Notes under the pieces: generated by a model | The model's database searches: none | Told to the model about the DNA's origin: nothing | The model's input: only the letters and a program-made list of their open reading frames with translations | Part shown: positions 2,548 through 37,597 of the stretch, piece by piece | Numbering within the stretch: position 1 is the stretch's first letter | Layout of the letters: every line of letters starts with the position of its first letter | DNA from: a virus | Length of the DNA: 64,000 bases | Virus record (IMG/VR): IMGVR_UViG_3300008261_000084 | Location: 1 to 64,000 of that record | Direction: 5' to 3' (one strand) | Program-made: the position numbers and the translations under genes

Positions 2548-2892
2548 ATGAAAAAGAAAGAAACACTTAATCCTATTACTGCTTTTAGAAAAGCTAATGA
2601 AGCTAGAAAAGCTGTAGTAATGAAGTCTTTAAAAAAGGCTCAAGAAGGTATTGCACAAGATACATCTGCAGCACAAACACTTTATAAAAATACAAAACCT
2701 TGGGAAGGAAAAGCTAATTTTAATTCTCCTTTTGATCCTCTTCGTAGTGAAGACCTATACAAAGAAAGTCAAAAGCTGGCGAGTGAGGCTGAAGCTAATA
2801 AAAAGAAGACAGATGGCTTAAATGCAATTTACCCTGGTTACCAGACACCTTTTCAAAAAAAGAAGGGTGGTTCTGTAAAAAGAAAAAAATAA
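2548..2892 (+). CDS. Small basic protein (114 aa)
   Basis: AQEGI motif; C-terminal KKKGGSVKRKK closely matches the end of 1876..2184 (RKGGSVKSKTKKK). Confidence 0.75.
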   Translation: MKKKETLNPITAFRKANEARKAVVMKSLKKAQEGIAQDTSAAQTLYKNTKPWEGKANFNSPFDPLRSEDLYKESQKLASEAEANKKKTDGLNAIYPGYQTPFQKKKGGSVKRKK

Positions 2893-3599: not shown

Positions 3600-4052
3600 A
3601 TGCAAAGAATGTTAAAGAGACCAGAGGCTACTAAAGCAACTAGCACATATGCTACTGCTCCAGCTAATGGTAATGTAGAATCACTTACTGCAGCTTGTGT
3701 AAGTGAATTAATGAATGCGGCAACTAGTTTCCACAAGTTACATTTAAAAGTAACCGGTACAGGATCCTATGCTGCACACAAAGCACTTAATGATTTGTAT
3801 GATGCATTACCTGGACATGCTGATGATTTAGCAGAAGGTTTCCAAGGGGCAACTGAAAAATTATTATCCTATGGAGAAGCTGCTCCTAGAAAGCTAGATA
3901 CTGTTGCTGACGGTATTGATTATTTAAAAGATATGTGTGATATGGTATGTAAGTTGCAAGATAAAATGCCTTACTCAGAAATAGTAAATGATCTTGACAC
4001 AATCAAATCAACTATGAATTCTGCTAAATACAAATTACTTTTCTTAAAATAA
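3600..4052 (+). CDS. Dps/ferritin-like four-helix-bundle protein
   Basis: LMNAATSFHKLHLKVTG..SYAAHKALNDLYD....ADDLAE matches the Dps ferroxidase signature H(x)nG..(F/Y)..H....(E/D).Y......D..AE. Confidence 0.8.
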   Translation: MQRMLKRPEATKATSTYATAPANGNVESLTAACVSELMNAATSFHKLHLKVTGTGSYAAHKALNDLYDALPGHADDLAEGFQGATEKLLSYGEAAPRKLDTVADGIDYLKDMCDMVCKLQDKMPYSEIVNDLDTIKSTMNSAKYKLLFLK

Positions 4053-20461: not shown

Positions 20462-23400
20462 ATGTCAGATAAATTACAAGATACTTCCCAAAATGTAACC
20501 GACAGTTTCATAAAGGGTCTGAATAAAGATTCAGATCCTTCTTATGTTACAGACGGTATGTGGACACATGCTGTTAATATGGTTAATAATTCTAAGACAG
20601 GTAAAGTAGGTTCTATATCTAATGAATCTGCCAATTACTTGTGCTTTAATACTGGCTTGTTTATGGCTGCCGGAGCTACTGAAAAGTTAGTGATAGGTAC
20701 TATATATTTATTTTCAGATAAATGGATAATTTTTACGGCAGGTCATAATAGTTTTGGTCAACCAGTTAGTGCTGAAATAGGTTTATTTGAAGAAGAGAAT
20801 TGCTCATACAAACCTATTGTTATTGATCCATGTTTAAATTTTGATAGAAGACATTTGATATCTGGTGTATCAAGATTAAGAGAAGATTGTACTTGGCAAG
20901 TATACTGGTCTGATGGTTTAAATCCGGATAGATACTTAAATGTTGGAGATCCTCAAACTTGGCCAGGACCAGACTACTCTTACATGGGATCTGTTGGAGC
21001 TAATGCAAACTATTATGAAGGACCTGGAGGTACTAAAATACTTTGGCCAAATGTACAATGGAATGAAGAATGTAAAGATGAAAATAATCAGATAGTACCA
21101 AAAGCTAACTATACAGCTGTAGGGTGTATTACTTGTAAAAACTTAAACACTTTAGATTGTGATCATATAAGATTAGCAAGATTAATGAAAACTCCTTGTT
21201 TAAAATTAAAAAGAGGGCAACAAGGGGGTACACTGGCTAACGGGACATATTTTGCTCTTATAGCATATACAGTAAAGGGACAGAAAGTAACTGATTACTT
21301 TGCACAAAGTAATTACCAGTTTATATATTCTCCACAAAATCTTCAAGGTTCACTTACTTTAGAGATATCTGCAGATAATGAAAACTTTGATGAGTTTCAA
21401 TTAGTAATTGTAAAGTGTGTAAGAGAACAAACAGTTGCACAATTGATGGGTATTTATTCTACTAATACAAGTACACTAAGCTTTGATCAAATTGACAGTG
21501 GTAGTAACATATCAGAACCACTTGAACAATTACCTTTACAAACACCGGTATATGAAACTTCAGATCAAATGGCTGAAGTAAATAATTATTTATTAAGAAT
21601 AGGACCAAGAAGTAAGTTTAATTTTAATTACCAACCATTAGCTAACTTAATTAAAACTAAGTGGGCTTCTGTAGAATATCCTGCGGATTACTACATGAAA
21701 GGTGGTAATAAAACCAATTATATGAGAGATGAAGTATATTCATTTTTCATTAGATGGGTCTACAATACAGGAGATAAATCTCCATCTTTTCATATTCCTG
21801 GAAGACCCCCTAGAGATTTTGCGGTTCCTAATGGTGTTACTCAAAAAGAAGATTCTGATTTAACAACTAATCAAAATTCATTATATGCAGATGACAAAGT
21901 ATTTGAAGTCTATAATACTGCTTCAATTGACAATGTGTCTACATTAGTTGGTACTAAAACTGATGATGGTGGAGAAGTTATAGCAACAGGAGATATGGGA
22001 TACTGGCAATCAAGTGAAAAGTATCCTGACAATAGAGCTGATATATGGAATCCTTCTAATCATTGTTGGACAGGAGAAACTACAAATGCATATGACTTGT
22101 GTGGTAAATACATTAGACATCATAAATTTCCTGAAGACTATACTGCCGGTAATAATTCAGCAAGTGTAACACACTTTAGAATAAATCCTACACCTAAGAA
22201 TAATTCTAATGATTATTACATTAGATTAATGGGTGTTTACTTTGAGAACATTGCATTACCAAAAGATAATGATGGTAATGATATTCCTGGTATTGCGGGT
22301 TTTGAAATTCTTAGAGGTTCAAGAGAAGGTAATAAAACTATTGTTGCTAAAGGTTTAGTAAACAATTTTAGAACATATCAAATTCCTGGAACCGGTGGTT
22401 TTAGTGCAACAGGTTTATATCCTAATTATCCTTTTAATACTATACAACCTTTAAGTAATACTTTAGGAGGTAATGTGGCTGGATATAATGATCCATATAT
22501 TAAAGCTGGTGTAAGTTCATTATATAATCAAACTGTACCAGATGATATATTTAGTTTCCATTCACCGGATACTATGATAAGAACACCATTCTTATCTACA
22601 ACAGAATTTAAAACATATGGTCAGTTATCAGGATATACACAACAAAACTTTAACATACCAACAGATCACCCTAAATTTAAATTATTATCTGATGTAGTTG
22701 TAATACCTATGATATTTGGTGGTCTTGCTGAAGCTATTATTTCAATGGTGGGTAAAAGAACTTCTGTGTCTCCAGGACCAGCATACCAAGATATTCAAAT
22801 ACCAGAAGTTCAAGGTGAAGAAATAAAAGGTAATGCTATTAATGGTACACCTATTACAGGTGGTGCAAGTGGTTCTGCTAATAATAATGGAGCAATTGCA
22901 ATTGTAGCTGGGGTTACCAATGGTACTTTAGCAATGGTTGAAAATGTTGTTTACACACCTTTAAGTGGTGGTAGTATTAGTGGTGGTGAAATAAGTGGTG
23001 GTGATATAAAAACAGATCCTAAACGAGCTTCTGATCCGGGTCAATTTGCTACGGTACTTAGTGGATTTACTGGTGCTAAAACTGGTTATAATCTAGGTGG
23101 TGCAATAATTGCAGATGCTTTAGCTGGTGGTGGTGGTTTAGAGGCTGTTTATACTAATGCTGCAAAAGCAGGTACGTATATTGATGGAGGTGTATATACG
23201 GGTCTTACATTAAACACAGAATATGCACAATCACAATATTTACCAAAAGTACTTGCAATTGCTAATAACATAGGAAAAATAGCTTATTATTTTTCTGAAG
23301 GTGCCAGAGTAACATTAGATTTAATATATGCTGTTACTGGATACAAACAATTTGCATTACAACAAAAAGCATATGGTTTTTATTCTAATATGGATAAAAA

Positions 23401-26014
23401 CTTAGCTGCAGATGTAACAAGATTTAAAACAGAAGACCAGTTCTATATTGATAGCAATATTCAATCTGTTTCAAGATACCAAGATGATACAGGTACTTGG
23501 AGATCTTATAATATTAATAATGTTAAAAGAACTCAAAAGGTTGTAGTAAGAACTAAAAATGGTGCTAATAAAAACAAAGGTCCTAAATTATTGTCTGGTG
23601 ATTTATCATTAACTACTTTAGGTACTTTACGTCAAGCTAATTTTGCACCTTACTTAGCAAGTACAGACTTACCTGATTTTAAAGGTGGTGTCAATAAAAC
23701 ATTTTCATTGCCAATTCAAAGTCACTATGGTGCTCTTAGAGGTAGAGTAAGAAACCAGTATGGTCAATTAGATTCTATTAAGCAATTACCTGTAGGAACA
23801 TGTGAGCAAAAAATTTCAGACTACACTATTAATAACATAGATTTAGTTTGTAATTCAAAAAATATAAAGAAAAAAGTTATTAATAGATCTCCACTAATGT
23901 TTGGTGGTGATACTTATATTAACAGATACACTGAAAAAGACAGTATGTGTTTCTTTTATGAGTGGTTATATAATGAACCAGATGGTTTTGAATATAATTA
24001 CTATTTGAGAAGTATGCTTCCTAATCCAAGATTTAGATTAAACAGTAGAAAATATGATATTCAAGATTTAGCAAGTGCTGTAAATGTTGAAACTATTTTA
24101 CAAGGTTCTTCTGTTACAGCTCCTCCAGGAGAAGGTGTAATGCCTTCAGATTTTTATAATCTTGATTATTATGAAAATGGTTCTAAAAAATATAATTACT
24201 CTAATGATACCGCTGCAGATTATCCTGGATTTTTTGTTTGTAAAGATTCAGCATTTTATTTAGCTGTGTCATCAATTAAAGATTTCTTTGTAGAATCTGA
24301 AGTACTTGTAGATTTTAGAACACAACCTGAAACAATTGCTAAGAAGTATTACAACCCTTATAATTTTACAGATTATAATTCTATGTTTGATACTAATCCA
24401 AATGTACTTGGAGAGAATAGTTCAAACTTATATGATTATTCATTAAGTGTGAGTAAGTTATATAATCAGTATTTTTCATTAGGTGTTGTACAAAGTAGGT
24501 ACTATGATCCAAATGTATCTGACTTATGTTATACTTACTATCCTAATAAGATTATCTACTCTTTACAACAACAAGATGATATGATAAAAGATAGTTGGTT
24601 TGTATTCTTAGCTAACAACTATAAATCATTTAAGTCTCATATTAGTGGTGTTAAGTCAATAAATAAATCAGGTATTGTAATTACATTTAAGAATGACAAC
24701 CCTATAATGTATCAGGGTGTAGATACTCTTCAGACTGATTTAGGTACAAAGGTTACTTTAGGTGACGGAGGTTTATTTAGTCAAGCTGCTCAACAATTAA
24801 GTAACGCTGATAAACCATATGAGTATGGAGCATCTCAAAACAGACTATCTGTAATATCTACACCTGTAGGTATATTTTACATGTCTCAAGCGGCTGGTAA
24901 AATATTTTCAGTTGGTGACGGGCTTCAAGAGATTTCTCAGCAAGGTATGAAATGGTGGTTCACACTTTTCTTACCGTACAAACTTTTAGTAGATTTCCCA
25001 TTATATCCATATACAGATAACCCAGTAGCAGGTATAGGATGTCAATCTGTATTTGATAATACAAATACTATTCTTTACTTCTGTAAGAAAGATTATCAAT
25101 TAAAAGATCAGTATAAAGGAAAAGTTACGTATGTACCACTTAAAGGAGATAGTACAGGTGATTACTTTATGATCAATGGTAATAATACAGCTCAGTTTAA
25201 ATTAGGTGACCCAACACTATTTAGAGATGCTTCTTGGACTATTAGTTATGACCCTAAGAATCAATTCTGGATTAGTTTCCATGACTGGCATCCGGATTTA
25301 TTAATGCCTACAAAAGATGTATTTATATCTACAAAAGGTACAGGAGGTTGGAGACATAACTGGATCTGCGATAAATACTGTAATTACTATGGTGTTGACT
25401 ATGCATGTGAAATTGATGTACCAATTGTAACAGGTCAAACCGTTACTACTACAAGATCCATTGAGTATATTTTAGAAGCTTATAGAAAAACTGATAACTG
25501 TGTGGATTCTCATCATGTACTAGATTATAATTTTGATACAGCTGTTGTGTATAACTCAGAACAAGTATCCGGTTATTTAAATCTTAACATTTATCCTAAG
25601 AATGATCTTGTACTTGCAAGACAGTTCCCAAGAGTAAATCCAGCTACTTTAACTTCATTTGATGTTTTATTTACAAAAGAAGAAAACAAATATAGATTTA
25701 GTCAGTTTTGGGATATAACAAATGATAGAGGTGAGTTTCCAATTGGTTCTCCGTATCCTGCAGATCAAGGTCCATATGTATCAGGTACAACTACTTTGCT
25801 TGGTACTTATAATAACTTAAACACTTGGATTACAGAACCTGATGGATTCAGAAGAGTATTGAATCAAAATAATCTTGATTACTTCAAACCAGAATTTCAA
25901 AGAAAAAAATTCAGACATTACATGAGTTTTGTTAACTTCAAGAAAAATATATCTGGTAATACCAATATTATTTTGAAAATCAATAATAGTAAAAATGAAA
26001 TTTCTCTAAGATAA
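20462..26014 (+). CDS. Tail stabilisation / muzzle protein (P22 gp10-like, Crassvirales)
   Basis: 1850 aa; F.KGLNKD N-terminus, VYWSDGLNP.R, YMRDEVYSF, FGGDTYINRY, WTISYD....WISFHDW motifs; synteny. Confidence 0.75.
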   Translation: MSDKLQDTSQNVTDSFIKGLNKDSDPSYVTDGMWTHAVNMVNNSKTGKVGSISNESANYLCFNTGLFMAAGATEKLVIGTIYLFSDKWIIFTAGHNSFGQPVSAEIGLFEEENCSYKPIVIDPCLNFDRRHLISGVSRLREDCTWQVYWSDGLNPDRYLNVGDPQTWPGPDYSYMGSVGANANYYEGPGGTKILWPNVQWNEECKDENNQIVPKANYTAVGCITCKNLNTLDCDHIRLARLMKTPCLKLKRGQQGGTLANGTYFALIAYTVKGQKVTDYFAQSNYQFIYSPQNLQGSLTLEISADNENFDEFQLVIVKCVREQTVAQLMGIYSTNTSTLSFDQIDSGSNISEPLEQLPLQTPVYETSDQMAEVNNYLLRIGPRSKFNFNYQPLANLIKTKWASVEYPADYYMKGGNKTNYMRDEVYSFFIRWVYNTGDKSPSFHIPGRPPRDFAVPNGVTQKEDSDLTTNQNSLYADDKVFEVYNTASIDNVSTLVGTKTDDGGEVIATGDMGYWQSSEKYPDNRADIWNPSNHCWTGETTNAYDLCGKYIRHHKFPEDYTAGNNSASVTHFRINPTPKNNSNDYYIRLMGVYFENIALPKDNDGNDIPGIAGFEILRGSREGNKTIVAKGLVNNFRTYQIPGTGGFSATGLYPNYPFNTIQPLSNTLGGNVAGYNDPYIKAGVSSLYNQTVPDDIFSFHSPDTMIRTPFLSTTEFKTYGQLSGYTQQNFNIPTDHPKFKLLSDVVVIPMIFGGLAEAIISMVGKRTSVSPGPAYQDIQIPEVQGEEIKGNAINGTPITGGASGSANNNGAIAIVAGVTNGTLAMVENVVYTPLSGGSISGGEISGGDIKTDPKRASDPGQFATVLSGFTGAKTGYNLGGAIIADALAGGGGLEAVYTNAAKAGTYIDGGVYTGLTLNTEYAQSQYLPKVLAIANNIGKIAYYFSEGARVTLDLIYAVTGYKQFALQQKAYGFYSNMDKNLAADVTRFKTEDQFYIDSNIQSVSRYQDDTGTWRSYNINNVKRTQKVVVRTKNGANKNKGPKLLSGDLSLTTLGTLRQANFAPYLASTDLPDFKGGVNKTFSLPIQSHYGALRGRVRNQYGQLDSIKQLPVGTCEQKISDYTINNIDLVCNSKNIKKKVINRSPLMFGGDTYINRYTEKDSMCFFYEWLYNEPDGFEYNYYLRSMLPNPRFRLNSRKYDIQDLASAVNVETILQGSSVTAPPGEGVMPSDFYNLDYYENGSKKYNYSNDTAADYPGFFVCKDSAFYLAVSSIKDFFVESEVLVDFRTQPETIAKKYYNPYNFTDYNSMFDTNPNVLGENSSNLYDYSLSVSKLYNQYFSLGVVQSRYYDPNVSDLCYTYYPNKIIYSLQQQDDMIKDSWFVFLANNYKSFKSHISGVKSINKSGIVITFKNDNPIMYQGVDTLQTDLGTKVTLGDGGLFSQAAQQLSNADKPYEYGASQNRLSVISTPVGIFYMSQAAGKIFSVGDGLQEISQQGMKWWFTLFLPYKLLVDFPLYPYTDNPVAGIGCQSVFDNTNTILYFCKKDYQLKDQYKGKVTYVPLKGDSTGDYFMINGNNTAQFKLGDPTLFRDASWTISYDPKNQFWISFHDWHPDLLMPTKDVFISTKGTGGWRHNWICDKYCNYYGVDYACEIDVPIVTGQTVTTTRSIEYILEAYRKTDNCVDSHHVLDYNFDTAVVYNSEQVSGYLNLNIYPKNDLVLARQFPRVNPATLTSFDVLFTKEENKYRFSQFWDITNDRGEFPIGSPYPADQGPYVSGTTTLLGTYNNLNTWITEPDGFRRVLNQNNLDYFKPEFQRKKFRHYMSFVNFKKNISGNTNIILKINNSKNEISLR

Positions 26015-29000
26015 TGTATAATAAAAAAGTTCTCTCCACAGCAAAGGCGGAGCTTAATAAAGCTAAAGCTCCTAAGAAACCTAAAGATATGATCACTGAT
26101 CGAATGGGTCAGTGGAAATATCCTGGGTTAGATACCAGAATTCCTGGTGATGGTTCTAAAGATATAAACATTACAATGGATGGTGTCTACAAACCTTTAC
26201 TTGCTATAGCAGATACAGGTGAGAAAAAAAAGTTATATCCTGGAGACAATCATACATTCCGTGGTGCTAAATATGTAGATGAATTTCCTGAAGCTAAAAG
26301 GGGCGGTAACAAAAAAAGAAAAACTAAAAGCTTATCAGGAACTAATAAGTTAATGCAAAAGAATCCTTTGCTCAGAGATTACAAGAACAGAGAATTTGAT
26401 CCAAATGTAGATTACTTTCAAGAAGGTGGTGATATAAATTTAGAACTTACACAAGATGAAATTGATCAATACGTAAAAGGTGGTTATATAGTAGAAGACA
26501 TATCTGTACCAGAACTTAATCAAGCTCAGAAAGGTAAAACTGTAGAAATATCTGACCCTAAAGAATTTGCTTATAGAAACCAAAAATACAAGGATAGTTT
26601 AGATTTATATAACTATTCAAATAAACAAGTAGTAGACAAAACTAAAAGATTTGGTTCAGATGCTATAGGTGTACAAAAAGAATATAATAAAAAAAAGGCT
26701 GCTGAATTTTTAAAAGAACAATTAAAAACATATGGTGATTTAGCACATGATCCAAAAGATAAGTATGGTAAGTTAATTACTAAACTTGTAAAAAAATCAA
26801 ATATATCACCAATAGGGTTAAGTATTAATGTTGAAGATTATGACTATATATTTAAAAAACCTGCACAAAAAGTAGTACTTAAAAAAGAAAATACACCTGT
26901 TCAAGATACTATAATTCAAAAACCTGTTGTACAGCAAGAAGTAAAACCTGTTATACAACAAAATATAAAACCGGTTCAAAAAACAGATTACCCTCAAGGT
27001 TATCAACCATACTCATTATATGGAAGAGTGCTAGATCCAGAAGTTTATGGGTATGGTGAATCTATAAATGGTAAACCATTAGAACTTGCTCAAGGTGCTG
27101 ATATGATGCTGAAAAAAATGCAGATGGAAAAATATAAAAAGGCTAATAAGTATCCATGGGTTAAACAAGAAGGTGGCAATATAAAAACACATAGAAGTAA
27201 AGACGGTACTGTTACTAATACAATTACTAAAGCTAATGGTGATACTGTAATACAGGTTAAAACTAAAAATGGTAAGTATTATGAAAAGCTTATTAAAAAA
27301 AGTGATGCCTTAGATACATTATCAAAATTACAAGGTGCTGTTAAACCTGAGTTTTTAGCATTGGGTAAGGCTGAAGCTGAAACTAAAAGAGAGGAGAAGC
27401 AAGCAAAACAAAAGTTTTTAAAAGAAGCTTGGTCTAATTATGATGATTGGTCTACTTCAGATAAAGTATCTGATAGAGTAGGAGCATTTCTGAATGATCC
27501 ATTTGGAATGACAGCAAGAGCACTAACAGGAGATCAAGCTTATATACCAGGTATGGCTCAAGGTTTACATAACCATGAAGATCCTGAAGTAAGAAATAGA
27601 TACTTAAAAGAATTAGGATACACTCCTGGAGAATTTGATGCTTCTGATGTACAGAACATGATTAACCCCGGTTACTGGGCTAGTTCATTTGTTGAAAATA
27701 GCAGAAAGGGTAATGTTGGTACAGCAGCATTAGAGGGAGCACTAATGTTCCTACCGCACTTACCTAAAGGTACTGTAAGTAAATCTAACATTAAATCTGG
27801 TGCAAAGCTTTTAGCTGATGATATAGTTAATAAAACACCATTAAAAAATACATACAAGATATTAGGAAAAGATACAAAGTTTTATAATCCTGGTGAAAAA
27901 CCACATTGGTTAAAAGGTTATACAGAATCTTGGAATCCTATGGAAGCAGATTTAGAACCACTTGCGGATTTTAGATTAAATGAAGCAATAAAAAATTTAG
28001 AGAACAAAAAGATATTTAAAGAACATGACGCAGTAAATAATAAATATTCACAAATACTTAATAATTTAAGTGAACAAAAAAAAATTGCTTTAAAGGCAAA
28101 TAATACAAAAGCTGTATCAGAAATCAATGCTGAATTAGATGATCTATTTAATGCAAGACTTAAAGAGCATAATAAAATTGCACGAAAACATTTTCAATCT
28201 AAAGAGCATCCTTTTGAAGAACAAATAGGTGCTGGTGGTTTTGGAACTGTGTATGGTTTACCTGAATCAGAATTTGTGATTAAAGTAGGGCAAGTTCCAA
28301 AAAATGAAAGTATATTAAAATTAGTAGAAAATTCTAAAGGTATTAATAAACCAAACATTGCTTTGCCAAAAAGAGCTAGTGCTACATCATCTGGTGAAAA
28401 GGTAATAGTAATGAATAAGGTTGAACCTGTTGAAGGTAATATTTTTACAAACCCTCCGACTAAAGAAAGTTATGAGCAATTAATAAAGGATGTTGAAGAA
28501 TTACAAGGTAAAGGAATTTATCTTGATTTTGAGAATCCACAAAATATACAATACAATCCAAAAACCGGTTTATTTAATATATATGATTTAAATACAACTG
28601 GTCATATTTTACACAAAACTGTTCCTAAAAATAGTTATAATGCTGGTGAAAAAACTATAGAACAATTACTTATTGATAATAAAAAATTACCTAGTGATTG
28701 GGGAAGTATAGCAAGTAGTAAATCTAATGCTGCAAATGAATGGGAAACAACTATAAGTAATTTAACAAGACCAGTAGGTGAAATACCATATAAGCCTGAA
28801 TTTAATACAAATGCTGCTAGTAAATTATATAGCTTAACTCATGAAAGAAAACTTCTTTTTGATACTCCAGAAGGTGAGAAAAGAATTAAAGATTTAATTG
28901 AAAATACACCAGAATTAAAAAATTCAGGATTTACTGTTGATGATTACAAAAGAGGTTTAGATGACATAACTAATGTTAATCTTCATTATCATAGATTATA

Positions 29001-31089
29001 CAAAGATTATACTGATTTAGAAAAAGCTCTTGAATATGCAAAAAATGTTGGGGGTGCTGATAAACAAGCAATATTAGATATGAATACCCAACTTGGTAAA
29101 ATGTCTTTTACACTTGCAGATTATGAAAAATTTATTCATGAACCAAAATGGTATTTAAATGCTTACATGAATAGAAAAGGACAACCTTCTGTAGGATTAA
29201 TAAAACCAGGAATACATCCAAAAGACAATTTTGATATTTTTGCAAATCCTCATTTAAATGACTTGGATATTTTAAGAATTGGTAGACATGAACTAGGTCA
29301 TTATATACAAAGAGGTGCAAGAACTAATTTAGATGATGAACTATCTAAAATATCTTTATTAGATGAAAATCCAAATATTAAACATATACCTTTTAGTGAA
29401 TCACAAGGTTCTTCAAAACTTCATCAACTCATTATGAGTGCTGAGGATCCGTTTAAGAAAATGAAAAAATATTGGAAATCTGCTGCTAATGGTAGAGAGA
29501 AAACACCATTTATAGAAGAAGTAAGAGCTGATCTTTTAGAAGAAGGTGTAATAAATAATTTATATGATGAAGTTACTCCTGATATGCTTGAATATCATTA
29601 CATAAATTATTTAAAAAAACAAGGTAATAAATATCCATTAAGAATTTTTGACTTGATGGAAAACAAACCTGAGAATTTTAAAATCATGTCTGATGTTATA
29701 AATAAGATGCCAGCAGTTGCACCTATAGTAGGTGGTGCAGGAGCAGCGGCTATTATGGGTAATGAGCAAGGACAAAAGAAAGAAATGAAGAAAGGTGGTA
29801 TTGTTGCTGATCTTACTGAAAAAGAAATTAGAGAATACACTGCAAGAGGATATATTGTTGAAGAGGATGATGATGAATACCAAGATGGTGGAGAAGCTGA
29901 GGCAATAAGCAACATTAGACGTAGACAAAAAGAAATAGCTGATTTAAGAGCTAATTCAAACATGTCAGAGGAAGTAAATCAAACACCTACTCAAGTACCT
30001 GTTCAAAAAACTATTGTTATTAACAAAGAGCCTATCAAACCACTTGTTAGAATTGCTGTTTCAAATAAACAAATTGAAAAACCAAAATCAACTGTAGTAA
30101 ATAAACCTATTGTAAAAACATTTGAAAAAAGTAAAGTAAAAGCAGAACAGAAATTAAATCAAAAACAAATAATACAACAAGTACAAGCAATCAAAAAAGA
30201 CTTAAAAGCTTCTTATTTACCTAATGCACCAAAAGAATTTTACAATCAGTTTGTAGAAAAACCGGTAACTAAACATGTTCAAACACCTAAAGCATTACAT
30301 AGTGATAATAAAACTTATGCTGATGAATTAAAAAGAATGATGAGAGCAATTGAGGAGGATGATATGATGGCATTAGTATCTGGAACAGAACCTAAACCAA
30401 AACCATTGTTTGAAAATTCTAACATTGAAAAAGAAATATTAGACAGACAGAAGTTTGATAATACTCATTATGGTAGATTTGATACAAGAGGTGATGATGT
30501 AATGAATAGAACAGATGTAAAAAGAAATAGAGACTCTGAGTTATTCTTTGCTAACATGGCTAAGAACAATTCTGTTATAGTTGACATAGGTTCTGCTTTA
30601 GGAAATAACAATCCTTCAATGGCTGGTGTTTCTGTATGGGAGTTAGCAAGTAATCCTCAAATTAAAAAGAAAGGTATTAATGTAATTGCAACAGACTTAC
30701 CGGATCAGATAAAAGATTTTAAGAAACATGTTAAGAATAAAAAAGCATATCCAATAGATTATGCGGAAGTTCCTGAAACATTTAACACTCCTATAGCAGA
30801 TATATTAAAATCTAAAAAGTTAGATGATAAGAAAGATGTATACCTTAGAGCAGCAAACAGTATTGACTTACTAATGAATACAGAGCAAGCAATAGAGCAC
30901 TTAAATCATATTGCAAAAACACTTAAAAATAAAAATGTAACGTACCTTTATAATAATGTAATATTATTTAAACCAGAAGGTAGTAAAACTTTTAAAAAGT
31001 TAGGTAATTTGAATAATGCAGGATTTGACCATAACAATAGAACATGGGTTAAAAACAAAAACAGAATCCCATATACCTTAAATTTTTAA
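26014..31089 (+). CDS. Polyvalent virion cargo protein with kinase-like, zincin and methyltransferase-like cassettes
   Basis: N-domain GQWKYPG..TRIP..ITMDGV..; GAGGFGTVY/VIK/DxxNxxN/YDL (28210-28600); HELGH (29287-29301); VIVDIGSA...ATD...RAANS (30574-30860). Confidence 0.7.
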   Translation: MYNKKVLSTAKAELNKAKAPKKPKDMITDRMGQWKYPGLDTRIPGDGSKDINITMDGVYKPLLAIADTGEKKKLYPGDNHTFRGAKYVDEFPEAKRGGNKKRKTKSLSGTNKLMQKNPLLRDYKNREFDPNVDYFQEGGDINLELTQDEIDQYVKGGYIVEDISVPELNQAQKGKTVEISDPKEFAYRNQKYKDSLDLYNYSNKQVVDKTKRFGSDAIGVQKEYNKKKAAEFLKEQLKTYGDLAHDPKDKYGKLITKLVKKSNISPIGLSINVEDYDYIFKKPAQKVVLKKENTPVQDTIIQKPVVQQEVKPVIQQNIKPVQKTDYPQGYQPYSLYGRVLDPEVYGYGESINGKPLELAQGADMMLKKMQMEKYKKANKYPWVKQEGGNIKTHRSKDGTVTNTITKANGDTVIQVKTKNGKYYEKLIKKSDALDTLSKLQGAVKPEFLALGKAEAETKREEKQAKQKFLKEAWSNYDDWSTSDKVSDRVGAFLNDPFGMTARALTGDQAYIPGMAQGLHNHEDPEVRNRYLKELGYTPGEFDASDVQNMINPGYWASSFVENSRKGNVGTAALEGALMFLPHLPKGTVSKSNIKSGAKLLADDIVNKTPLKNTYKILGKDTKFYNPGEKPHWLKGYTESWNPMEADLEPLADFRLNEAIKNLENKKIFKEHDAVNNKYSQILNNLSEQKKIALKANNTKAVSEINAELDDLFNARLKEHNKIARKHFQSKEHPFEEQIGAGGFGTVYGLPESEFVIKVGQVPKNESILKLVENSKGINKPNIALPKRASATSSGEKVIVMNKVEPVEGNIFTNPPTKESYEQLIKDVEELQGKGIYLDFENPQNIQYNPKTGLFNIYDLNTTGHILHKTVPKNSYNAGEKTIEQLLIDNKKLPSDWGSIASSKSNAANEWETTISNLTRPVGEIPYKPEFNTNAASKLYSLTHERKLLFDTPEGEKRIKDLIENTPELKNSGFTVDDYKRGLDDITNVNLHYHRLYKDYTDLEKALEYAKNVGGADKQAILDMNTQLGKMSFTLADYEKFIHEPKWYLNAYMNRKGQPSVGLIKPGIHPKDNFDIFANPHLNDLDILRIGRHELGHYIQRGARTNLDDELSKISLLDENPNIKHIPFSESQGSSKLHQLIMSAEDPFKKMKKYWKSAANGREKTPFIEEVRADLLEEGVINNLYDEVTPDMLEYHYINYLKKQGNKYPLRIFDLMENKPENFKIMSDVINKMPAVAPIVGGAGAAAIMGNEQGQKKEMKKGGIVADLTEKEIREYTARGYIVEEDDDEYQDGGEAEAISNIRRRQKEIADLRANSNMSEEVNQTPTQVPVQKTIVINKEPIKPLVRIAVSNKQIEKPKSTVVNKPIVKTFEKSKVKAEQKLNQKQIIQQVQAIKKDLKASYLPNAPKEFYNQFVEKPVTKHVQTPKALHSDNKTYADELKRMMRAIEEDDMMALVSGTEPKPKPLFENSNIEKEILDRQKFDNTHYGRFDTRGDDVMNRTDVKRNRDSELFFANMAKNNSVIVDIGSALGNNNPSMAGVSVWELASNPQIKKKGINVIATDLPDQIKDFKKHVKNKKAYPIDYAEVPETFNTPIADILKSKKLDDKKDVYLRAANSIDLLMNTEQAIEHLNHIAKTLKNKNVTYLYNNVILFKPEGSKTFKKLGNLNNAGFDHNNRTWVKNKNRIPYTLNF

Positions 31090-31139
31090 AGTTTAAATGA
31101 TAAATTTATTTTTAGTATATTAAATTATAATCTTTACAC

Positions 31140-32819
31140 ATGGAAAGAAAAAGAGTTAGAATTTACAAAGCTCCTGATGGACAAGGTGAATATAGATCAA
31201 AGCTTAAATCATTTGTTACTGCACAAAAAGGAATATCTGTGGATGATTCTGCTATGCATAGAACTCCTGATGAAGCCTTAAAAGAAAATGCTATCACTAC
31301 TTATGTGAAATATGTTAATACTCAGCTTAAAGATGGTATGTCAATTCAAGGAATCTATAAGGATTTACTTGAAAAAGGTTTAGCTGAAGAAGAAGCGGCA
31401 GGGTTATTAAAGTATTTTGTTCAAAATAATTTAGAAGGTACACCAGAAGCAAGTGAAGAAAAGCAACAACAAGAAGGACAATCTGCTGAACAACCTACAA
31501 TGCAAGAAGGTGGGGCTGCTGAACAAATATTATCTCAGTATGATGCTGAGAAAGGTGCTTCATTAGAAGATGATGAAACAATAGATTTAATGAAACTGTT
31601 AAAAGAACCTGCTGAAAACTATTTATCAGAAATGCAAAATAGTTCTAAGGTTTATTTTCCAGGTATTTCAGATTATATATTTGACTATAAACCTATTGAG
31701 TTTATGGATCCAACACATAGCAATGTTTATCCTGGTTTACAACAAGCAAAAAAAGGAGGAGTTTCTAAAAAGAGCTTTGTTAAAAATGTTTTGGGTCGCT
31801 TTAAGGAAGGTGGTGAAGATGAACCTGCTCAACAAGGAGACAAAATGGATACAATGACTTCTGAAATAAGTAACAGAAAAAATTCTTTTATTGCTAAGTT
31901 AAAGGAAATCAATGAGGAAGAGAAAATAAAAAATCTCTATGATCAAATGATGGAAACTAATGATCCGGGGTTAATGCAAACTGCGCAAACTCTTGCTGGT
32001 GGAAATGGTGGTGTAGGAGAAGACAATGAAGAAAGCTTATCTTATCAACAATCCGGTGGTTACTTAGGAGAAGGACAACCTGAACTATTTATGAATGGTG
32101 GTGTTGATTACCCATATGAGTTAGAACAAGCTCAAGAAGGAAAAGAAAAAAGAAAAACAAAAGTAAAATATGTTGACAATCCAACATTACCATCATCAAA
32201 ATTAAGATTGTTTAATCCAGTTTGGGGTGAAAGAAAAGTTTATAGTAATAGACCATATAACGCATTAACAAGAGAACTTTATAGAGATCCTGTTGATGAT
32301 TTAACTCCTGTTGCAAGAACTGTACATAAGAGAGGTATATTTGGTAGACCTAAAAAGTGGACTGATTACTATTCTAAAGATGGTAAATTAATGGTTCCTC
32401 CAGGTGCAACAGACATCACTACTAAAAAAGATGAGAAAAAATTAATAAATGATCAGTCAGAAGAATTATGGGATGACTTATCAGGTAAAGCTAAAAGAGC
32501 AATAAGAAGAGGTGAGAGAAGATTAAATAGAAGAAAAGGTTATGAAGATGAAAAAGAACTAACAATTCAAGAGTTAATTGCTTTACAAGAAGAACAAAGA
32601 AAAAAAGAAAATGATAAATCATACAAAGAAAGAAAAGATGCTATAGAAGCAGATGATAAAAGAAAAAAAGACTTTGGTAGAATTGATGATCCTGAGCGTA
32701 AAAAAGCAGACTGGGAAACTATTAATGATAGAATTAATGGTAAACTAGAAGAGTATGTATTCTCAACAATTAGCAAACCAAATGGGTTATGGAGTAAATT
32801 ATCAAAACATATTAGATAG
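31140..32819 (+). CDS. Acidic low-complexity virion cargo protein, 5' part
   Basis: 559 aa with multiple xxxGG motifs; overlaps the next ORF by 65 nt in a different frame. Confidence 0.7.
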   Translation: MERKRVRIYKAPDGQGEYRSKLKSFVTAQKGISVDDSAMHRTPDEALKENAITTYVKYVNTQLKDGMSIQGIYKDLLEKGLAEEEAAGLLKYFVQNNLEGTPEASEEKQQQEGQSAEQPTMQEGGAAEQILSQYDAEKGASLEDDETIDLMKLLKEPAENYLSEMQNSSKVYFPGISDYIFDYKPIEFMDPTHSNVYPGLQQAKKGGVSKKSFVKNVLGRFKEGGEDEPAQQGDKMDTMTSEISNRKNSFIAKLKEINEEEKIKNLYDQMMETNDPGLMQTAQTLAGGNGGVGEDNEESLSYQQSGGYLGEGQPELFMNGGVDYPYELEQAQEGKEKRKTKVKYVDNPTLPSSKLRLFNPVWGERKVYSNRPYNALTRELYRDPVDDLTPVARTVHKRGIFGRPKKWTDYYSKDGKLMVPPGATDITTKKDEKKLINDQSEELWDDLSGKAKRAIRRGERRLNRRKGYEDEKELTIQELIALQEEQRKKENDKSYKERKDAIEADDKRKKDFGRIDDPERKKADWETINDRINGKLEEYVFSTISKPNGLWSKLSKHIR

Positions 32820-34248
32820 ACCTACTAATCCAAACAATCCAAATGAGCAAAGAGCTAATTTAGAAGAAGATATTCTTAATAGAGAAATTAATGCTGCTGA
32901 AAATGCTGGTTATGATTTATACGGTGATCTTAATACTTACATTCCTGCTGATGAGAGAAACACAGTTTCTCCTGGCACATATCAATTTACTCCTGGTAAA
33001 TCTAAAACACGCGCTGCTGAAGAAGCAAGAATTGCAGCTGAGATGGAAAGAGAGCGTGAAGCAGAAGAGTGGGAAAGAGATATGCAAAGAAACACAAGAA
33101 AACAATTAGGTGGTTTGCCAAAAGCTCAAATAGGTGTTAAGTCACCTACTAATGGTGTAAACCCTGCTTCAGATCCTACAGCTAATAAACAAAATTGGTC
33201 TGGTGTTTTGAATATGAATAATCAACCTAAGAAGGAAGAATTCCAATTCCCAATGAAAATGGAAGCACCTGCTGAAGAAAAATCTGCATTACCCGATTGG
33301 TTAAATAAAGATACTTGGATGAATTCATTGACAGAAGATAAAGATGAAACTACTGAAGAGAATCCTGATTTAATTGCACAAGATTTTGAATCTAAAAGAG
33401 ACTTTAATGGAGAAGCTTTTAATCAAAAGCTGAATGCAGGTATTGATGCTTTTACAGGTCTTGCTAAAAGAATGGATACCAATAGACAAATGGCTGATTA
33501 CTATGCTAATAATAGTGGTGTAGATTCTTTCATGAATCCACAAGAAGCAAAATTAAAAGGTAAGTTTGTTGCATATGGTCAAGAAAGTGGATTGATAGAC
33601 CCAACAAAAATGGGTAATGAGAAAAACAGCATATTTGCTGGAACTAATAGTGCTCGTTCTGGTGGTTACATGCAAGATGGTGGACAATCTAGAGAGGAAA
33701 TTTTAAAGCAATTTACAGGTACACCTGAGTTTAAAAGAGGTCTTGACTTAATGATGCAAAGAGATAACACTGATAATGGTGATCCATTCTATGATGCAAT
33801 GAGAGAGGCTAATTATACTGAAGAAGATCAGAATAAATACCGTGAAGCTATTGGTGAAATGAATAATCCTGAGTGGTTAGAAAGAGTACCTCAAAAAAGT
33901 CCTTATATTAAATCTGGTAGACAGAGAGAGTTACAAGACTTAATGAATAAAGCTTATGGTTCAGAAAGATATAATACTCCATATGCAGTTGGAAGTGGTG
34001 GGCCAAGAAGAGAAGATGAGCGATACATTCCAACACCTGAAAGAAGACCTACACCATTTGAAGATGGTAGAGTTGATCCTAGAACATTAGAAGCAATTCA
34101 ACCTGGTGCAAATGAATATGAAGGTATGCAAATAGGTGGCTATATGGAAGAAGAAGGATATGCTGAAGGAGGTGTATTTGATATGGATGAAGATGAATTA
34201 AGAGAATTCCTTGCTAACGGGGGAGAAGTTGAATATTTAGAATCTTAA
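32755..34248 (+). CDS. Acidic virion cargo protein, probably the 3' part of the preceding gene
   Basis: 497 aa in the +1 frame with the same composition and motifs; the frame opens only at 32749 and has no A-rich leader. Confidence 0.6.
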   Translation: MYSQQLANQMGYGVNYQNILDRPTNPNNPNEQRANLEEDILNREINAAENAGYDLYGDLNTYIPADERNTVSPGTYQFTPGKSKTRAAEEARIAAEMEREREAEEWERDMQRNTRKQLGGLPKAQIGVKSPTNGVNPASDPTANKQNWSGVLNMNNQPKKEEFQFPMKMEAPAEEKSALPDWLNKDTWMNSLTEDKDETTEENPDLIAQDFESKRDFNGEAFNQKLNAGIDAFTGLAKRMDTNRQMADYYANNSGVDSFMNPQEAKLKGKFVAYGQESGLIDPTKMGNEKNSIFAGTNSARSGGYMQDGGQSREEILKQFTGTPEFKRGLDLMMQRDNTDNGDPFYDAMREANYTEEDQNKYREAIGEMNNPEWLERVPQKSPYIKSGRQRELQDLMNKAYGSERYNTPYAVGSGGPRREDERYIPTPERRPTPFEDGRVDPRTLEAIQPGANEYEGMQIGGYMEEEGYAEGGVFDMDEDELREFLANGGEVEYLES

Positions 34249-34252
34249 TAAG

Positions 34253-37200
34253 ATGAAAGTAAGAATTAAAAAACTACCGCAAGCTAGAACAGGATACCAA
34301 GTACAAGGTTCTTTAGCTAATGATGTACCAGCTATGGGTGGTGCAGACTATAATACTTATATAGGAAAGCCTGAGTTGAGAACAAGCAAGTATCTTACTG
34401 CTGTTCCTAGAGAAGAAGCTAATCTAGAAGCTGAAGGAGGTGAAACAGCATACGGTGACCTTAATGGTGACGGAATGGCTGAACACAAAATCATCAAAGG
34501 GCCTAGACACTCTAATGGTGGTGTTCCATTAAAATTGCCTGATGACACTTTTATTTACAGTGACTTCAGAGGTATGAGTATTAATGAACCTGAATTCTTA
34601 CAAATGTTTGGTAAAGTAGGAGGTTCTTTAAAAAGTAAGAAGAAAAGTTATACTCCAGCTGAATTAGCTAAACAATATGACATTGAGAAGTATAGAAAAA
34701 TTCTTCAAGATCCGGACTCAGATTATATTGATAAAAAAACTGCAGAGTTGATGATTAAAAATTATCAAACTAAACTTGGTTTATTAGCAATTGTACAAGA
34801 AAGTAAAAAAGGATTACCACAAGGTGAAGCAGAAGCATTTAAACCTGGTATGGCTGCATTAGGTATGAATACAGATTCATTAACTGATCCTGGTATTGCA
34901 GCTTTTGAAAAACAAATACAATCAAAAATTGAAGGTTTAAAACAACAAGAACAGCAACCTAATGAGCAAGAAGGTGCACAAGAAGCTGGTAGTGAAGATG
35001 GTTATGCTGAAGCACAAGAAATGAATCAAGGACAACCTGTTGCACAACCACAAGAGATGGAACAACCAATGGCTCAATATGGTATGTCCATGGGTGGATA
35101 TGATCTACCTTTTGCACAAGATGGTATAGAATTAGGTCCTATTTATACTCCAAAGTCTAATGATAAAAATTATGACAGAAATCAACCTGGTATGCAAGAA
35201 TACCTTAAAACTATTCAAAGATATAATGAGATAAATGGTAAACCTGAATTTATTCCTGTTGGAGAAGGACCATTAAATGAAAACCAGATGAGGAACTATG
35301 AGGATTTAATAGAAGAAATAAATAGTAAAGATCATGGAACTTCATATGATCCAGAAACTGGAGAACCTCTACCAAATGAAGAACATACACCAGAAGAATA
35401 CTTAAAAATGTATAAACAAAATGTGGAAGATTGTCCTTGTATGAAAAAAGTAATTGTACAAGGGATGCCTCAAAATAAATGTGTACCATGTGAGCAAATG
35501 GCAATGGCTCAGTATGGAATGTCTATGGGAGGTTATGATTTACCATATGGTGATGATATTCCTGAAGCTGAATATGGTATGGCTATGGGTGTTAACTCTA
35601 GAAACTATATGGGTAGACCTAAGTCTCCTATGTATGCTAGAGGAGGTGCTTTAAGAACATATCAAGGGGATAAAGGTTCTAGTGAGGTTAAACCTGGTGG
35701 AGGTGCAGCAACAGACTTAGATGTTTCTGGAAAATCTGATGCTGAGATTAGAAGAATGGAATGGGATGCAAAACAAAAAGATCCTAATGCTAATTTTAGA
35801 TTAGTAAGAAAAAATGCTAAAGGAAAAACGGTTGCATTAAAACATACAGATGTAACTGATAACTATCAAGAAAGAGGTAAGAAGTATGGTGAGGCTGACT
35901 TTAAAGATAAAAAATACAAAGACACTCCCGCAAATAGAATTGCTTTAGCACAAATTGAGATGTTTGAACAACAATTAAATGATCCAAAATTTGGTGCAGA
36001 ATATGTTAAAGAAACTCAAGAAGCTTTGAAAGATCCAAGAGTTTTTAAAACTAGAAATGGACAGTTACCAATTTATAAAAATGCATATGGTAAAGAACCT
36101 ACTCCTGAAGAAATTAAAACTGCTGCTGTAAATATGTTTAGAAGAAACACTATGTTACAAGCACAAGGTTTTAATGCAAGATTGTTAAAAGATAGTGGTG
36201 TAGGATTAGATGATCCAGCAACAATTGTTAAAGATGGTGTAATTAATCCTACTAATGGTAAACCATATACTTTAGATGAAGCTAAAGCTGCGGTGGCTGA
36301 TTATAAGGCTAAAAAATGGACTAGTGTAGCTAAAGTTGTTGATGAATTTGGTTTACCTCCAATTGGTGGTAAAGCAGATATTGCATTAGAACAAACTACA
36401 ACTCACGGTTATGCTAGATTAAATGATAAGCTTAATAGTGGTGGTTATGATGCTGATCCTGATATGAAGTACCTTATGACAACTACTTTAGGAGAAAACA
36501 GAAAAGGTGAATTAAACTCAGGTAGAGGTGATGAAAAATCAATGCAAGGTTTATATAAAAACAGTTCTGTTCAAATTTCTCCTTCTGACGGTTATTATGG
36601 TAATACTTCAGCTGAACAAAAAAATGCAGCTGATCCAGGAAGTGTTTCATATATAGAAGAACCAGAAGCAGAAGAGAAAAAAACAACTGATGTTAACACT
36701 GATACAGATCCAGAATGTGAATGCGAAACTGCAGATGGTGGTAAAATAACTACTGAAAAAGATGCTAATGGAGAATGTTTACCATGTCCGGAAGAAGAAG
36801 TATTACAAGATGTTCCTAAAGAACCAGCTAAGTTCTGGACACAGGATAACATTAAAACTGCAGGAGCTTTTACTGATTTAATGAGCATAAACAAATATGG
36901 GCCACTATCAACTACAGCAGATCTTGATAAAAATGAACTTGAGTATGTAGATCCTACAAGAGCTTTATCAGCTAATGCTGAACAAGCAAATATTGCAGGA
37001 AAAGCATTAAGTCAAATAGGTGCACCACAAGCAGCTTCTGCTAATATATTAGCATCTCAAGGTAAATCAGCGGCAAATGCTGCAAATATTATAAGTGATT
37101 ATGATATGAAAAATCAAGCTTTTGGTTCACAATATGCTACTAACTATGCTAATATTGAAAACCAAGAAAGAAGTTATAATATTGGAGCTAGACAAAAAAT

Positions 37201-37597
37201 GTATGATTCAACTATGATGGCTAATCAAGCATATGATAACTCTAAAAGAGCTGCTAGAAACAACCTTATGAATGCATATACAAATGCTTTAACTAATAGA
37301 GCTAAGACAGATGCAATGAATCAAATTTATCCAGACTATCAAATACATCCTGATAGAGCTGGTGAGATGACTTACAAAGGTGCTGGTAGACAAATGTCTC
37401 CTGGTAAAGCAAATGAACCATATTGGGAAGCACGTCAAAGGTGTGTAGATAACAATGCACCTGATCCTGATAAATGTGCTGAAAATGCAACACGTCAATC
37501 ACCTACTCCTCAAAATAAAGGAGAAATTGTAAATCAGCTTTATACAAAAGCGGGTGGGTTTGTATACAGTGATATAGTTTATCCTTTTGTCTTATAA
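34253..37597 (+). CDS. Virion cargo protein with conserved EAEGGE...GPRHSNGGV domain
   Basis: 1114 aa; ANLEAEGGET...KGPRHSNGGVPL pattern of crAss-like internal proteins; Ala/Asn/Gln-rich helical C-terminus. Confidence 0.7.
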   Translation: MKVRIKKLPQARTGYQVQGSLANDVPAMGGADYNTYIGKPELRTSKYLTAVPREEANLEAEGGETAYGDLNGDGMAEHKIIKGPRHSNGGVPLKLPDDTFIYSDFRGMSINEPEFLQMFGKVGGSLKSKKKSYTPAELAKQYDIEKYRKILQDPDSDYIDKKTAELMIKNYQTKLGLLAIVQESKKGLPQGEAEAFKPGMAALGMNTDSLTDPGIAAFEKQIQSKIEGLKQQEQQPNEQEGAQEAGSEDGYAEAQEMNQGQPVAQPQEMEQPMAQYGMSMGGYDLPFAQDGIELGPIYTPKSNDKNYDRNQPGMQEYLKTIQRYNEINGKPEFIPVGEGPLNENQMRNYEDLIEEINSKDHGTSYDPETGEPLPNEEHTPEEYLKMYKQNVEDCPCMKKVIVQGMPQNKCVPCEQMAMAQYGMSMGGYDLPYGDDIPEAEYGMAMGVNSRNYMGRPKSPMYARGGALRTYQGDKGSSEVKPGGGAATDLDVSGKSDAEIRRMEWDAKQKDPNANFRLVRKNAKGKTVALKHTDVTDNYQERGKKYGEADFKDKKYKDTPANRIALAQIEMFEQQLNDPKFGAEYVKETQEALKDPRVFKTRNGQLPIYKNAYGKEPTPEEIKTAAVNMFRRNTMLQAQGFNARLLKDSGVGLDDPATIVKDGVINPTNGKPYTLDEAKAAVADYKAKKWTSVAKVVDEFGLPPIGGKADIALEQTTTHGYARLNDKLNSGGYDADPDMKYLMTTTLGENRKGELNSGRGDEKSMQGLYKNSSVQISPSDGYYGNTSAEQKNAADPGSVSYIEEPEAEEKKTTDVNTDTDPECECETADGGKITTEKDANGECLPCPEEEVLQDVPKEPAKFWTQDNIKTAGAFTDLMSINKYGPLSTTADLDKNELEYVDPTRALSANAEQANIAGKALSQIGAPQAASANILASQGKSAANAANIISDYDMKNQAFGSQYATNYANIENQERSYNIGARQKMYDSTMMANQAYDNSKRAARNNLMNAYTNALTNRAKTDAMNQIYPDYQIHPDRAGEMTYKGAGRQMSPGKANEPYWEARQRCVDNNAPDPDKCAENATRQSPTPQNKGEIVNQLYTKAGGFVYSDIVYPFVL
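35069..35545 (+). repeat. Direct repeat encoding MAQYGMSMGGYDLP (two copies)
   Basis: Copies start at 35069 and 35504; identical 14-aa peptide with synonymous DNA differences. Confidence 0.85.

Follow-up and report, generated by a model that had tools for sequence, protein, structure and literature searches.

A conserved Gly-Gly peptide grammar and an acidic C-terminal module in the cargo proteins of a Crassvirales genome

Introduction

Crassvirales are among the most abundant phages, and how several megadaltons of protein cargo are chosen, packed and ejected by them is an open question. A locus bearing on this question lies in the first 64 kb of the IMG/VR virus record IMGVR_UViG_3300008261_000084 (84,452 bp, ~70% complete; uncultured crAss-like phage), a stretch of 64,000 nucleotides called the window in the following, in which all large genes are encoded on the plus strand. 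Four consecutive open reading frames (ORFs) of the window, named here by their first position (26014, 31140, 32755 and 34253), carry many copies of a short motif ending in Gly-Gly (GG), referred to below as a seam. According to an original prediction made from the DNA letters, these motifs might act as cleavage sites or packaging tags of virion cargo. This raises the questions whether the motif is a signal at all and, if so, whether the proteins are cut, held or merely recombined at it. The analysis described here reveals a non-random signal whose position is conserved and which is specific to the cargo genes and to small basic head proteins; the seam pattern is real, widespread and apparently undescribed.

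The four ORFs are located between the muzzle and ring genes and the RNA polymerase (RNAP)-like giants, and this arrangement is syntenic in 36 loci obtained by an alignment-based scan of viral contigs (a scan with ORF 32755 alone as query yielded no match). The locus order is ring 1, muzzle, the protein at the 26014 position, a fused 31140+32755 protein, the 34253 homologue and then the homologues of 37657 and 40587. Since they are flanked by the muzzle gene and the RNAP-like giants, the four ORFs occupy the place of the cargo proteins C1/C2 of crAss001, and their products are most likely packed and injected. Searches of Pfam and PHROG gave no match for any of them.

Results

Frequency and specificity of the motif

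All motifs listed in the original prediction were recovered, among them AKRGG (26293), FQEGG (26416), KQEGG (27163), MKKGG (29785), YQDGG (29878), MQEGG (31500) and MQIGG (34126). The pattern [AMFYKQ]xxGG occurs 21 times in the four cargo ORFs, compared to 6.97 ± 2.53 times when residues were shuffled within each protein (z 5.5; none of 2000 shuffles reached 21). AQxG was present 8 times versus 1.13 times after shuffling (z 6.5), and GG as such 36 versus 21.6 times. The 22 other proteins of the window (16.7 thousand residues) showed no excess, neither of [AMFYKQ]xxGG (22 versus 18.9) nor of AQxG (0 versus 2.5). Given the within-protein shuffles and the lack of any excess in neighbouring genes, the frequency is not due to Gly content, which would yield only 7.0 of the 21 copies; a compositional artefact is ruled out and a chance origin is excluded. 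One site of the listed type, IGAGGFG at residue 741 of ORF 26014, belongs to a kinase-like glycine loop and is not a seam.

The specificity for cargo genes is also found in the relatives. The pattern [FYMAK][QKRAE][EDKRSNQ]GG, taken from the window, was scored on the GG sites of the de-duplicated relatives, with the following numbers of fitting sites:

Polyvalent gene (26014 position): 106 of 200
Fused 31140+32755 gene: 79 of 251
34253 homologue: 34 of 296
Muzzle: 1 of 191
37657 homologue (RNAP-like): 0 of 45
40587 homologue (RNAP-like): 2 of 146
Ring 1: 0 of 14

Counted from the first Gly, F/Y/M are enriched ~5-fold at position -3 and Q 5.5-6.3-fold at position -2. In 150 database proteins that are mutually <50% identical, the seam pattern was present at 728 sites versus 40 in shuffles, about half of these sites belonging to a longer module (see below) and half lying outside module copies. 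The seam glycines are mostly encoded by GGT GGT, with synonymous variants (GGT, GGA, GGG, GGC) and no Shine-Dalgarno-like bias. The signal therefore resides at the protein level, and a DNA-level signal such as an internal Shine-Dalgarno-like GGAGG or a repeated DNA element is ruled out.

Positional conservation in the second cargo protein

ORFs 31140 and 32755 correspond to a single gene in all relatives (36 related loci), the protein of which has 676-1726 residues. Homologues of ORF 32755 found by database search (712-870 residues) likewise join a 31140-like N-terminus to a 32755-like C-terminus.

31140..32819, plus strand: N-terminal half of the second cargo protein, with KAQKG (31218-31232), MQEGG (31500), AKKGG-helix-FKEGG (31746-31814), QQSGG (32046), FMNGG (32088) and AQEG (32130)
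32755..34248, plus strand: C-terminal half of the second cargo protein, with KQLGG-LPKAQIG (33100-33135), ARSGGYMQDGG (33652-33684), MQIGG (34126) and YAEGG (34159)
32343..32354, plus strand: invariant GRPK (AT-hook-like core), residues 402-405 of ORF 31140, at the tip of a predicted beta hairpin with strands 389-398 and 404-412

In alignments of 12 and 17 homologues (20-79% identical) the motif glycines form invariant columns although the mean column identity is only 31-46%, which provides the positional conservation that the original prediction had called for. The alignment of 17 sequences, which are 20-37% identical to the second cargo protein of the window, contains 15 invariant columns, six of which are motif glycines and four the GRPK core. 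In the alignment of the homologues of 712-870 residues, the elements that stay invariant amid variable acidic linkers are KAQxG (at about residue 30), [KR]GG-SKK, QEGG, Q-GG...F-GG, GGLPKAQ and GGYM-GG. The GRPK core is kept in nearly all homologues of the second cargo protein, is invariant in both alignments and may be a DNA contact.

In the window, the two ORFs overlap by 65 nt in different frames, and the frame change must fall in 32750-32819, where no slippery run is present. A true fission of the gene, a programmed shift or an error of assembly could account for the split. A database homologue (P0001) also begins at the MGYGV position.

The acidic C-terminal module

Three of the GG sites of the window introduce a longer repeat, namely GG, a short strand, L-T-x-x-E-I-x-x-Y and then G-G/Y and I-V-E. 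This acidic module of 27-45 residues has the order strand-helix-GG-strand and was found in three copies:

26413..26505, plus strand: module copy 1 (internal type) in ORF 26014, FQEGG followed by strand-helix-GG-YIVEDI (profile match E 1.5e-15; alignment with relatives)
29782..29868, plus strand: module copy 2 (normally C-terminal type) in ORF 26014, with MKKGG first (profile E 6.8e-14); protein end in relatives
34144..34239, plus strand: module copy 3, extreme C-terminus of the second cargo protein, ending ...ANGGEVEYLES (profile E 3.2e-9); C-terminal in every relative

An iterated profile run over the window and all 36 loci found 97 module copies. They are confined to the polyvalent protein (one internal, one at the extreme C-terminus) and to the extreme C-terminus of the fused protein, with no copy in any other gene of the window and the 36 loci. 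This record and each of five 100%-complete relatives contain exactly three copies. The C-terminal 27 residues of the fused protein show 80% pairwise identity versus 46% for the remainder. Against 1.84 billion representatives, the profile matched 1127 proteins at E<=0.001 and 320 at E<=1e-10. The best 150 of these 1127 proteins carry 2-4 copies each, 121 of the 150 have a copy ending within 5 residues of the C-terminus, and 302 of their 353 copies start with GG. Hence the part of the original prediction that envisaged a packaging tag gains support, as two cargo proteins that are otherwise unrelated and evolve fast both end in a 27-residue acidic module introduced by GG; the part that envisaged cleavage does not.

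Assignment of the module to known families was not successful. The three copies reached 11.5-17.7 bits with SutA-RBD (PF20661; cut-off 29.3, about half of the profile covered) and 12-23 bits were obtained with DUF7210 (PF23843; cut-off 27). A profile search of the PDB yielded only chance-level matches. A resemblance of the module helix to C39 double-glycine leaders was rejected as well, the register being off by one residue and a C39 domain being absent.

Cassette borders, linkers and breakpoints in the first cargo protein

The protein encoded at the 26014 position varies between 448 and 2241 residues among the 36 syntenic loci, and only its first 100-200 residues can be aligned among relatives. 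In the window it comprises the following elements in addition to module copies 1 and 2:

26014..31089, plus strand: polyvalent/polymorphic cargo protein of 1691 residues, the N-terminal ~100-180 residues conserved, the rest variable cassettes
26092..26292, plus strand: folded N-terminal beta domain, residues 27-93, with GQWxxPG signature (AlphaFold2 predicted local distance difference test, pLDDT, 88-93; <50 from residue 96)
26293..26307, plus strand: first seam AKRGG, followed by a basic stretch (consensus in relatives PQM[KR]KGG)
27163..27177, plus strand: seam KQEGG, conserved as WVKQEGG in two relatives (L007 and L008)
29287..29301, plus strand: HExxH (HELGH), a possible zincin metallopeptidase cassette (pattern match only, no Pfam support)

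The GQWxxPG domain is also found in 89 of the 150 database representatives; cupin-like matches to its fold were weak only (E >= 6.5e-3). The header NQAQKG (26515-26535) comes after module copy 1, and module copy 2 precedes YQDGG (29878-29892), a linker rich in Lys and another cassette. The cassettes include a kinase-like glycine loop (GxGxxG-like), the HExxH and a methyltransferase-like motif, all with motif-level support; SET and VanY are found in relatives. The polyvalent gene is split in some relatives (L010, 5469-9943; L021, 5053-5604), so that cassette units can exist as separate genes; one relative has the N-terminal domain of 88 residues as an ORF of its own and another is reduced to 183 residues with one cassette and one module.

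The claim that the motifs fall at cassette borders was borne out. In the AlphaFold2 model of the first 190 residues of ORF 26014, the beta domain ends at residue 93, directly before AKRGG, and the remainder including the module is near or below 50 pLDDT. Similarly, the N-terminal alignment of the polyvalent proteins diverges directly after YFQDGG. Among these proteins 20% of local-alignment ends lie within 5 residues of a motif versus 5.6% at random, a value that no null run reached and that is in part circular or inflated, since the motifs themselves are conserved islands bounding local alignments. As seams and modules are the only conserved stretches, cassettes appear to be gained, lost and exchanged at them. 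The location in linkers is likewise in accordance with the structure predictions, in which all eight motifs of ORF 31140 lie within or at the edge of segments of pLDDT<50 (46% of the chain), predicted disordered linkers, and AKKGG and FKEGG exactly flank a predicted helix (210-223).

Third cargo protein, small basic proteins and the header

Seams were also found in proteins that do not carry the module:

34253..37597, plus strand: third cargo protein, with header-like N-terminus KVRIKKLPQARTG, two AQYGMSMGGYDLP repeats (35072-35125, 35507-35545), YARGG (35633) and a C-terminal GG plus 12 residues (37544-37594)
1500-1721, 1876-2184, 2187-2396 and 2548-2892, plus strand: small Lys-rich proteins ending in K-x-G-G plus 6-11 basic residues

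The features of ORF 34253 are positionally conserved in 28 relatives, and no module copy is present. The motif of this family differs, with A/S at -2 (e.g., AQYGMSMGGYD), and fits phi-Q-x-GG (phi, hydrophobic residue) poorly. The N-terminal domain, residues 1-130 (34253-34650), is strongly conserved: 44 columns are invariant among 23 relatives, and NLEAEGGE and GPRHSxGGVPLxLPDD are part of them. An identity with crAss cargo protein 1 was considered on the basis of a language-model look-alike (0.91) only and was not confirmed by profile tests: the hhalign E-value of 0.28 is insignificant, and the crassvirus cargo protein 1 domain (PF25725 crAss_CARG1) has no match at E<=10 in the genome.

The presence of the same motif in the small basic proteins, which had also been proposed, could be verified. 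Their C-terminal tail, K-K-G-G-x-x-K-K, is kept in three complete relatives; ORF 1876 additionally carries GGP...KAQKG and ORF 2548 KKAQEG. In total, the C-terminus of seven window proteins consists of GG and a further 6-12 residues (5-14 in relatives), and all seven are head-associated or cargo proteins. Another element, the header (L)P(K)AQxG, is frequently located behind GG, as in GGLPKAQIG, GGFDMPQAQKG, GGYDLPFAQDG and GGYIVEDISVPELNQAQKG, and is also found at native N-termini, where the 34253 family starts with KVRIKKLPQARTG and a protein of one relative (L038) with MAKFKITGLPKAQTG.

The last ~30 residues (ending ...KGKVGGISKAPKKASPCH) of a 323-residue ORF at 197-1168 correspond to a separate ORF of 56-64 residues in three complete relatives, the upstream protein there having 338 residues. 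The window therefore contains a fusion or frameshift here.

Search for a protease

The record and five 100%-complete relatives were searched for proteases that might cut at the seams. No match at E<=1 was obtained for Peptidase C5 (PF00770, adenain), C48 (PF02902, Ulp1/SENP), C39 (PF03412), S78 (PF04586, HK97-type), S77 (PF03420, T4-type) or ClpP (PF00574), which leaves a role of the seams as cleavage sites unsupported. S21 (PF00716, herpes) yielded no match either, but the control for this family also matched nowhere. The consensus of adenain, with a hydrophobic residue at P4, is not found here, as F/Y/M are enriched at P5 (-3 from the first Gly) and P4 is Q/K. HExxH is present in 45 of the 150 database representatives (53 sites versus 1.7 expected). 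However, only five of 28 close relatives contain it while all keep the seams, so an embedded zincin is not a general seam protease.

Other genes of the window

The muzzle gene marks the start of the cargo block, and several other genes of the window could be assigned:

20462..26014, plus strand: crassvirus muzzle protein gene (Pfam PF25731 crAss_MUZ, E 1.5e-25), motif-free
ORF 18736: ring protein 2 (Pfam CrAss_Ring_2)
ORF 19407: crass ring protein 1 (Pfam CrAss_Ring_1)
3600-4052, among the head genes: ferritin/Dps-like protein (PHROG 858 'starvation-inducible regulator', Pfam DUF5856), 74-93% identity in relatives
16825-18036: Fibrobacter succinogenes major paralogous domain (PF09603, E 4e-41), occupying the C-terminal half of a protein of tail or fibre

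The RNAP-like giant encoded by ORF 47826 (3656 residues) contains an AlkB-like 2OG-FeII_Oxy_2 domain at residues 3127-3353 (57204-57884; Pfam, E 3e-11, above cut-off) and an HExxH at residue 784. A further giant, ORF 58801 (1716 residues), has a LysM domain near its C-terminus (residues 1643-1682; 63727-63846; E 7e-7) and an HExxH at residue 197.

Discussion

The observations described above can be combined into a peptide grammar. The tail phi-(Q/K)-x-G-G would end a unit and the header (L)P(K)AQxG would often open the next unit as well as whole proteins, whereas GG plus 5-12 residues would close whole proteins; in the two most variable genes the seams would frame the acidic module. Since the seams are selected as peptides, specific to cargo, exposed and located at unit borders, they are probably recognised by a partner. 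As short recognised joints in disordered linkers, they might allow unrelated cassettes to fold independently of one another, like beads on a string, and the chain could thereby be packed densely and threaded unfolded through portal and tail, similar to what has been proposed for crAss001 gp45. The C-terminal module would then be a common docking tag that recruits the upstream cassettes to a shared procapsid partner, and cleavage at the seams would not be needed. This reading, recognised joints plus a C-terminal docking tag, is favoured because the terminal module is common to two unrelated, fast-changing proteins and no conserved protease was found, and a probability of about one half is assigned to it.

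Several points weigh against this reading. AlphaFold2 gives the module alone only ~50 pLDDT, and no binding partner was identified. It is not obvious why 5-11 copies in a single protein would be needed for docking alone. With its strict phi at -3 and Q/K at -2, the motif resembles a site recognised by an enzyme or by a receptor, between which the data do not discriminate. In addition, one mechanism may not cover all cases, since the third cargo protein and the small basic proteins have seams without the module, and the breakpoint enrichment counts for less owing to its partial circularity.

The alternative that the seams are cleavage sites, at which a virion-packaged, embedded-zincin or host protease cuts after G-G and frees cassettes and basic C-terminal peptides during maturation or after injection, is a serious competitor, albeit a less likely one. 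It would account for a short motif with N-terminal-side specificity that occurs many times per protein in exposed linkers and exactly at cassette borders, for sequences diverging directly after GG, and for internal units opening with the same header as native N-termini. The seven head and cargo proteins ending in GG plus a short tail, conserved in relatives, resemble ubiquitin-like precursors, and the excess of HExxH in 45 of 150 family members would fit the processing of polyvalent proteins by embedded zincins, a published hypothesis (PMC5512222). Yet none of the C5, C48, C39, S78, S77 and ClpP families was matched, HExxH is absent from 23 of 28 close relatives that keep the seams, the hydrophobic residue stands at P5 and not at adenain's P4, and the combination of tail and header as well as a module of 27-45 residues exceed the needs of a cleavage site. 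Furthermore, the crAss001 papers report no protease, cleavage or processing and show virion bands of 150, 270 and >300 kDa; those proteins, though, do not carry the motif, and because the seam-like sites of gp45 lie outside the resolved segments and reported peptides, these data neither show nor exclude cutting. It is doubtful that an unrecognised protease (of a novel phage fold or of the host) cuts after Gly-Gly, frees cassettes and trims the small basic core proteins while the acidic module loads cassette strings into the head; the two together would amount to a modular load-and-release delivery of effectors, widespread among environmental Crassvirales.

Two further explanations do without cutting or docking. 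The seams might be partnerless Gly-Gly hinges or leftover shuffling junctions, with their flanks kept only as homology for recombination between co-infecting relatives. This would explain why breakpoints concentrate at seams and modules, and why the middle of the polyvalent protein is swapped wholesale between relatives while seams and modules stay. However, the 15 nt that encode the 5 residues of the motif do not suffice for homologous recombination, and the codons are variable. The amino acids of the seams are retained in proteins of only 20-37% overall identity and across 1127 clusters at <50% identity, which indicates selection on the peptide and not on the DNA. Conservation of the seams extends to proteins in which no cassettes are shuffled, namely the second and third cargo proteins and the small basic ones. 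With specific side chains conserved at such divergence, the recombination-scar or hinge explanation is weakened and seems distinctly improbable. It is very unlikely that the basic variants (K-K-G-G-x-x-K-K, the GRPK core and the Lys-rich tails) are DNA contacts of protamine-like core proteins and that the acidic variants are unrelated to them, sharing only Gly-Gly. Basic tails do end four small Lys-rich proteins encoded beside capsid genes, GRPK is invariant, and the protein of one relative has a sub-threshold Pfam match to the histone-H1-like HC2 (26.7 bits versus a cut-off of 40). Nevertheless, acidic and basic variants alternate in one protein at equivalent positions, as exemplified by the module introducers MKKGG, FQEGG and YAEGG, and AQxG accompanies both alike.

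The peptide grammar provides a sequence rule by which cargo proteins and their domain borders can be recognised in metagenomes, where at least 1127 clusters at 50% identity carry the module. It might also serve as a specific handle on cargo loading and explain how effector cassettes are swapped in these phages. If the joints were in fact cut, this would amount to polyprotein-style effector release in tailed phages.

Comparison with known systems

In agreement with the original prediction, no published description of the motif was found, nor any paper with the pentapeptides in a phage context. Known GG cleavage sites are those of adenain ((M/L/I)xGG|x), of ASFV pS273R (GG|x), of Ulp1/SENP and of the C39 double-glycine peptidases. 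Like the seams, they have a hydrophobic residue upstream of Gly-Gly and recur in core or internal virion proteins, including small basic DNA-associated ones. In contrast to these systems, no C5, C48 or C39 match is present here, and the hydrophobic residue is located one position further upstream. Known capsid-targeting signals are the cargo-loading peptides of encapsulins and the capsid targeting sequence of T4 internal proteins. They share no sequence similarity with the module, which is acidic, 27-45 residues long, C-terminal and also internal, and whose binding to a shell, portal or scaffold is only putative. The likeness consists in a short conserved terminal peptide that follows a flexible linker and is common to unrelated proteins inside an HK97-fold shell.

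The closest counterpart by genomic place are the cargo proteins C1 (gp45) and C2 (gp46) of Bacteroides phage crAss001, which are encoded directly after the muzzle and before the RNAP-like giants. gp45 has been described as a partly unfolded chain extending from the tail barrel to the portal and has been modelled as one chain spanning tail barrel and capsid (Bayfield et al., 2023; PMC10172136). It contains 21 GG versus 13 expected, and contexts such as FAEGG, KAFGG, FAYGG and KAKGG lie outside its two resolved segments. On the other hand, neither gp45 nor gp46 showed the acidic C-terminal module or the AQxG header, and the paper reports neither a motif nor processing (PMC10172136). Homology of the window cargo proteins to gp45 could not be established (BLASTP/hhalign E 0.07-0.7; only a seam-like 20-mer aligns). 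The fused cargo protein has no cultured relative in the phage collection searched.

The architecture of the first cargo protein resembles that of the polyvalent proteins of phages and conjugative elements, for which processing by embedded zincins has been proposed (Iyer, Burroughs, Anand, de Souza and Aravind, 2017; PMC5512222). Variable cassette architecture is observed here, while gene position alone suggests delivery together with the DNA. As in that class, unrelated candidate effector cassettes would be strung here in one virion-delivered polypeptide, and zincin-type HExxH motifs are frequent in the family studied here. The passages of that article that were searched define no junction motif, cleavage site, C-terminal tag or crAss-specific N-terminal domain. 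Compared with such polyvalent proteins, and with a conserved protease not found, the cassettes of the window stand out by being bounded by a conserved peptide grammar.

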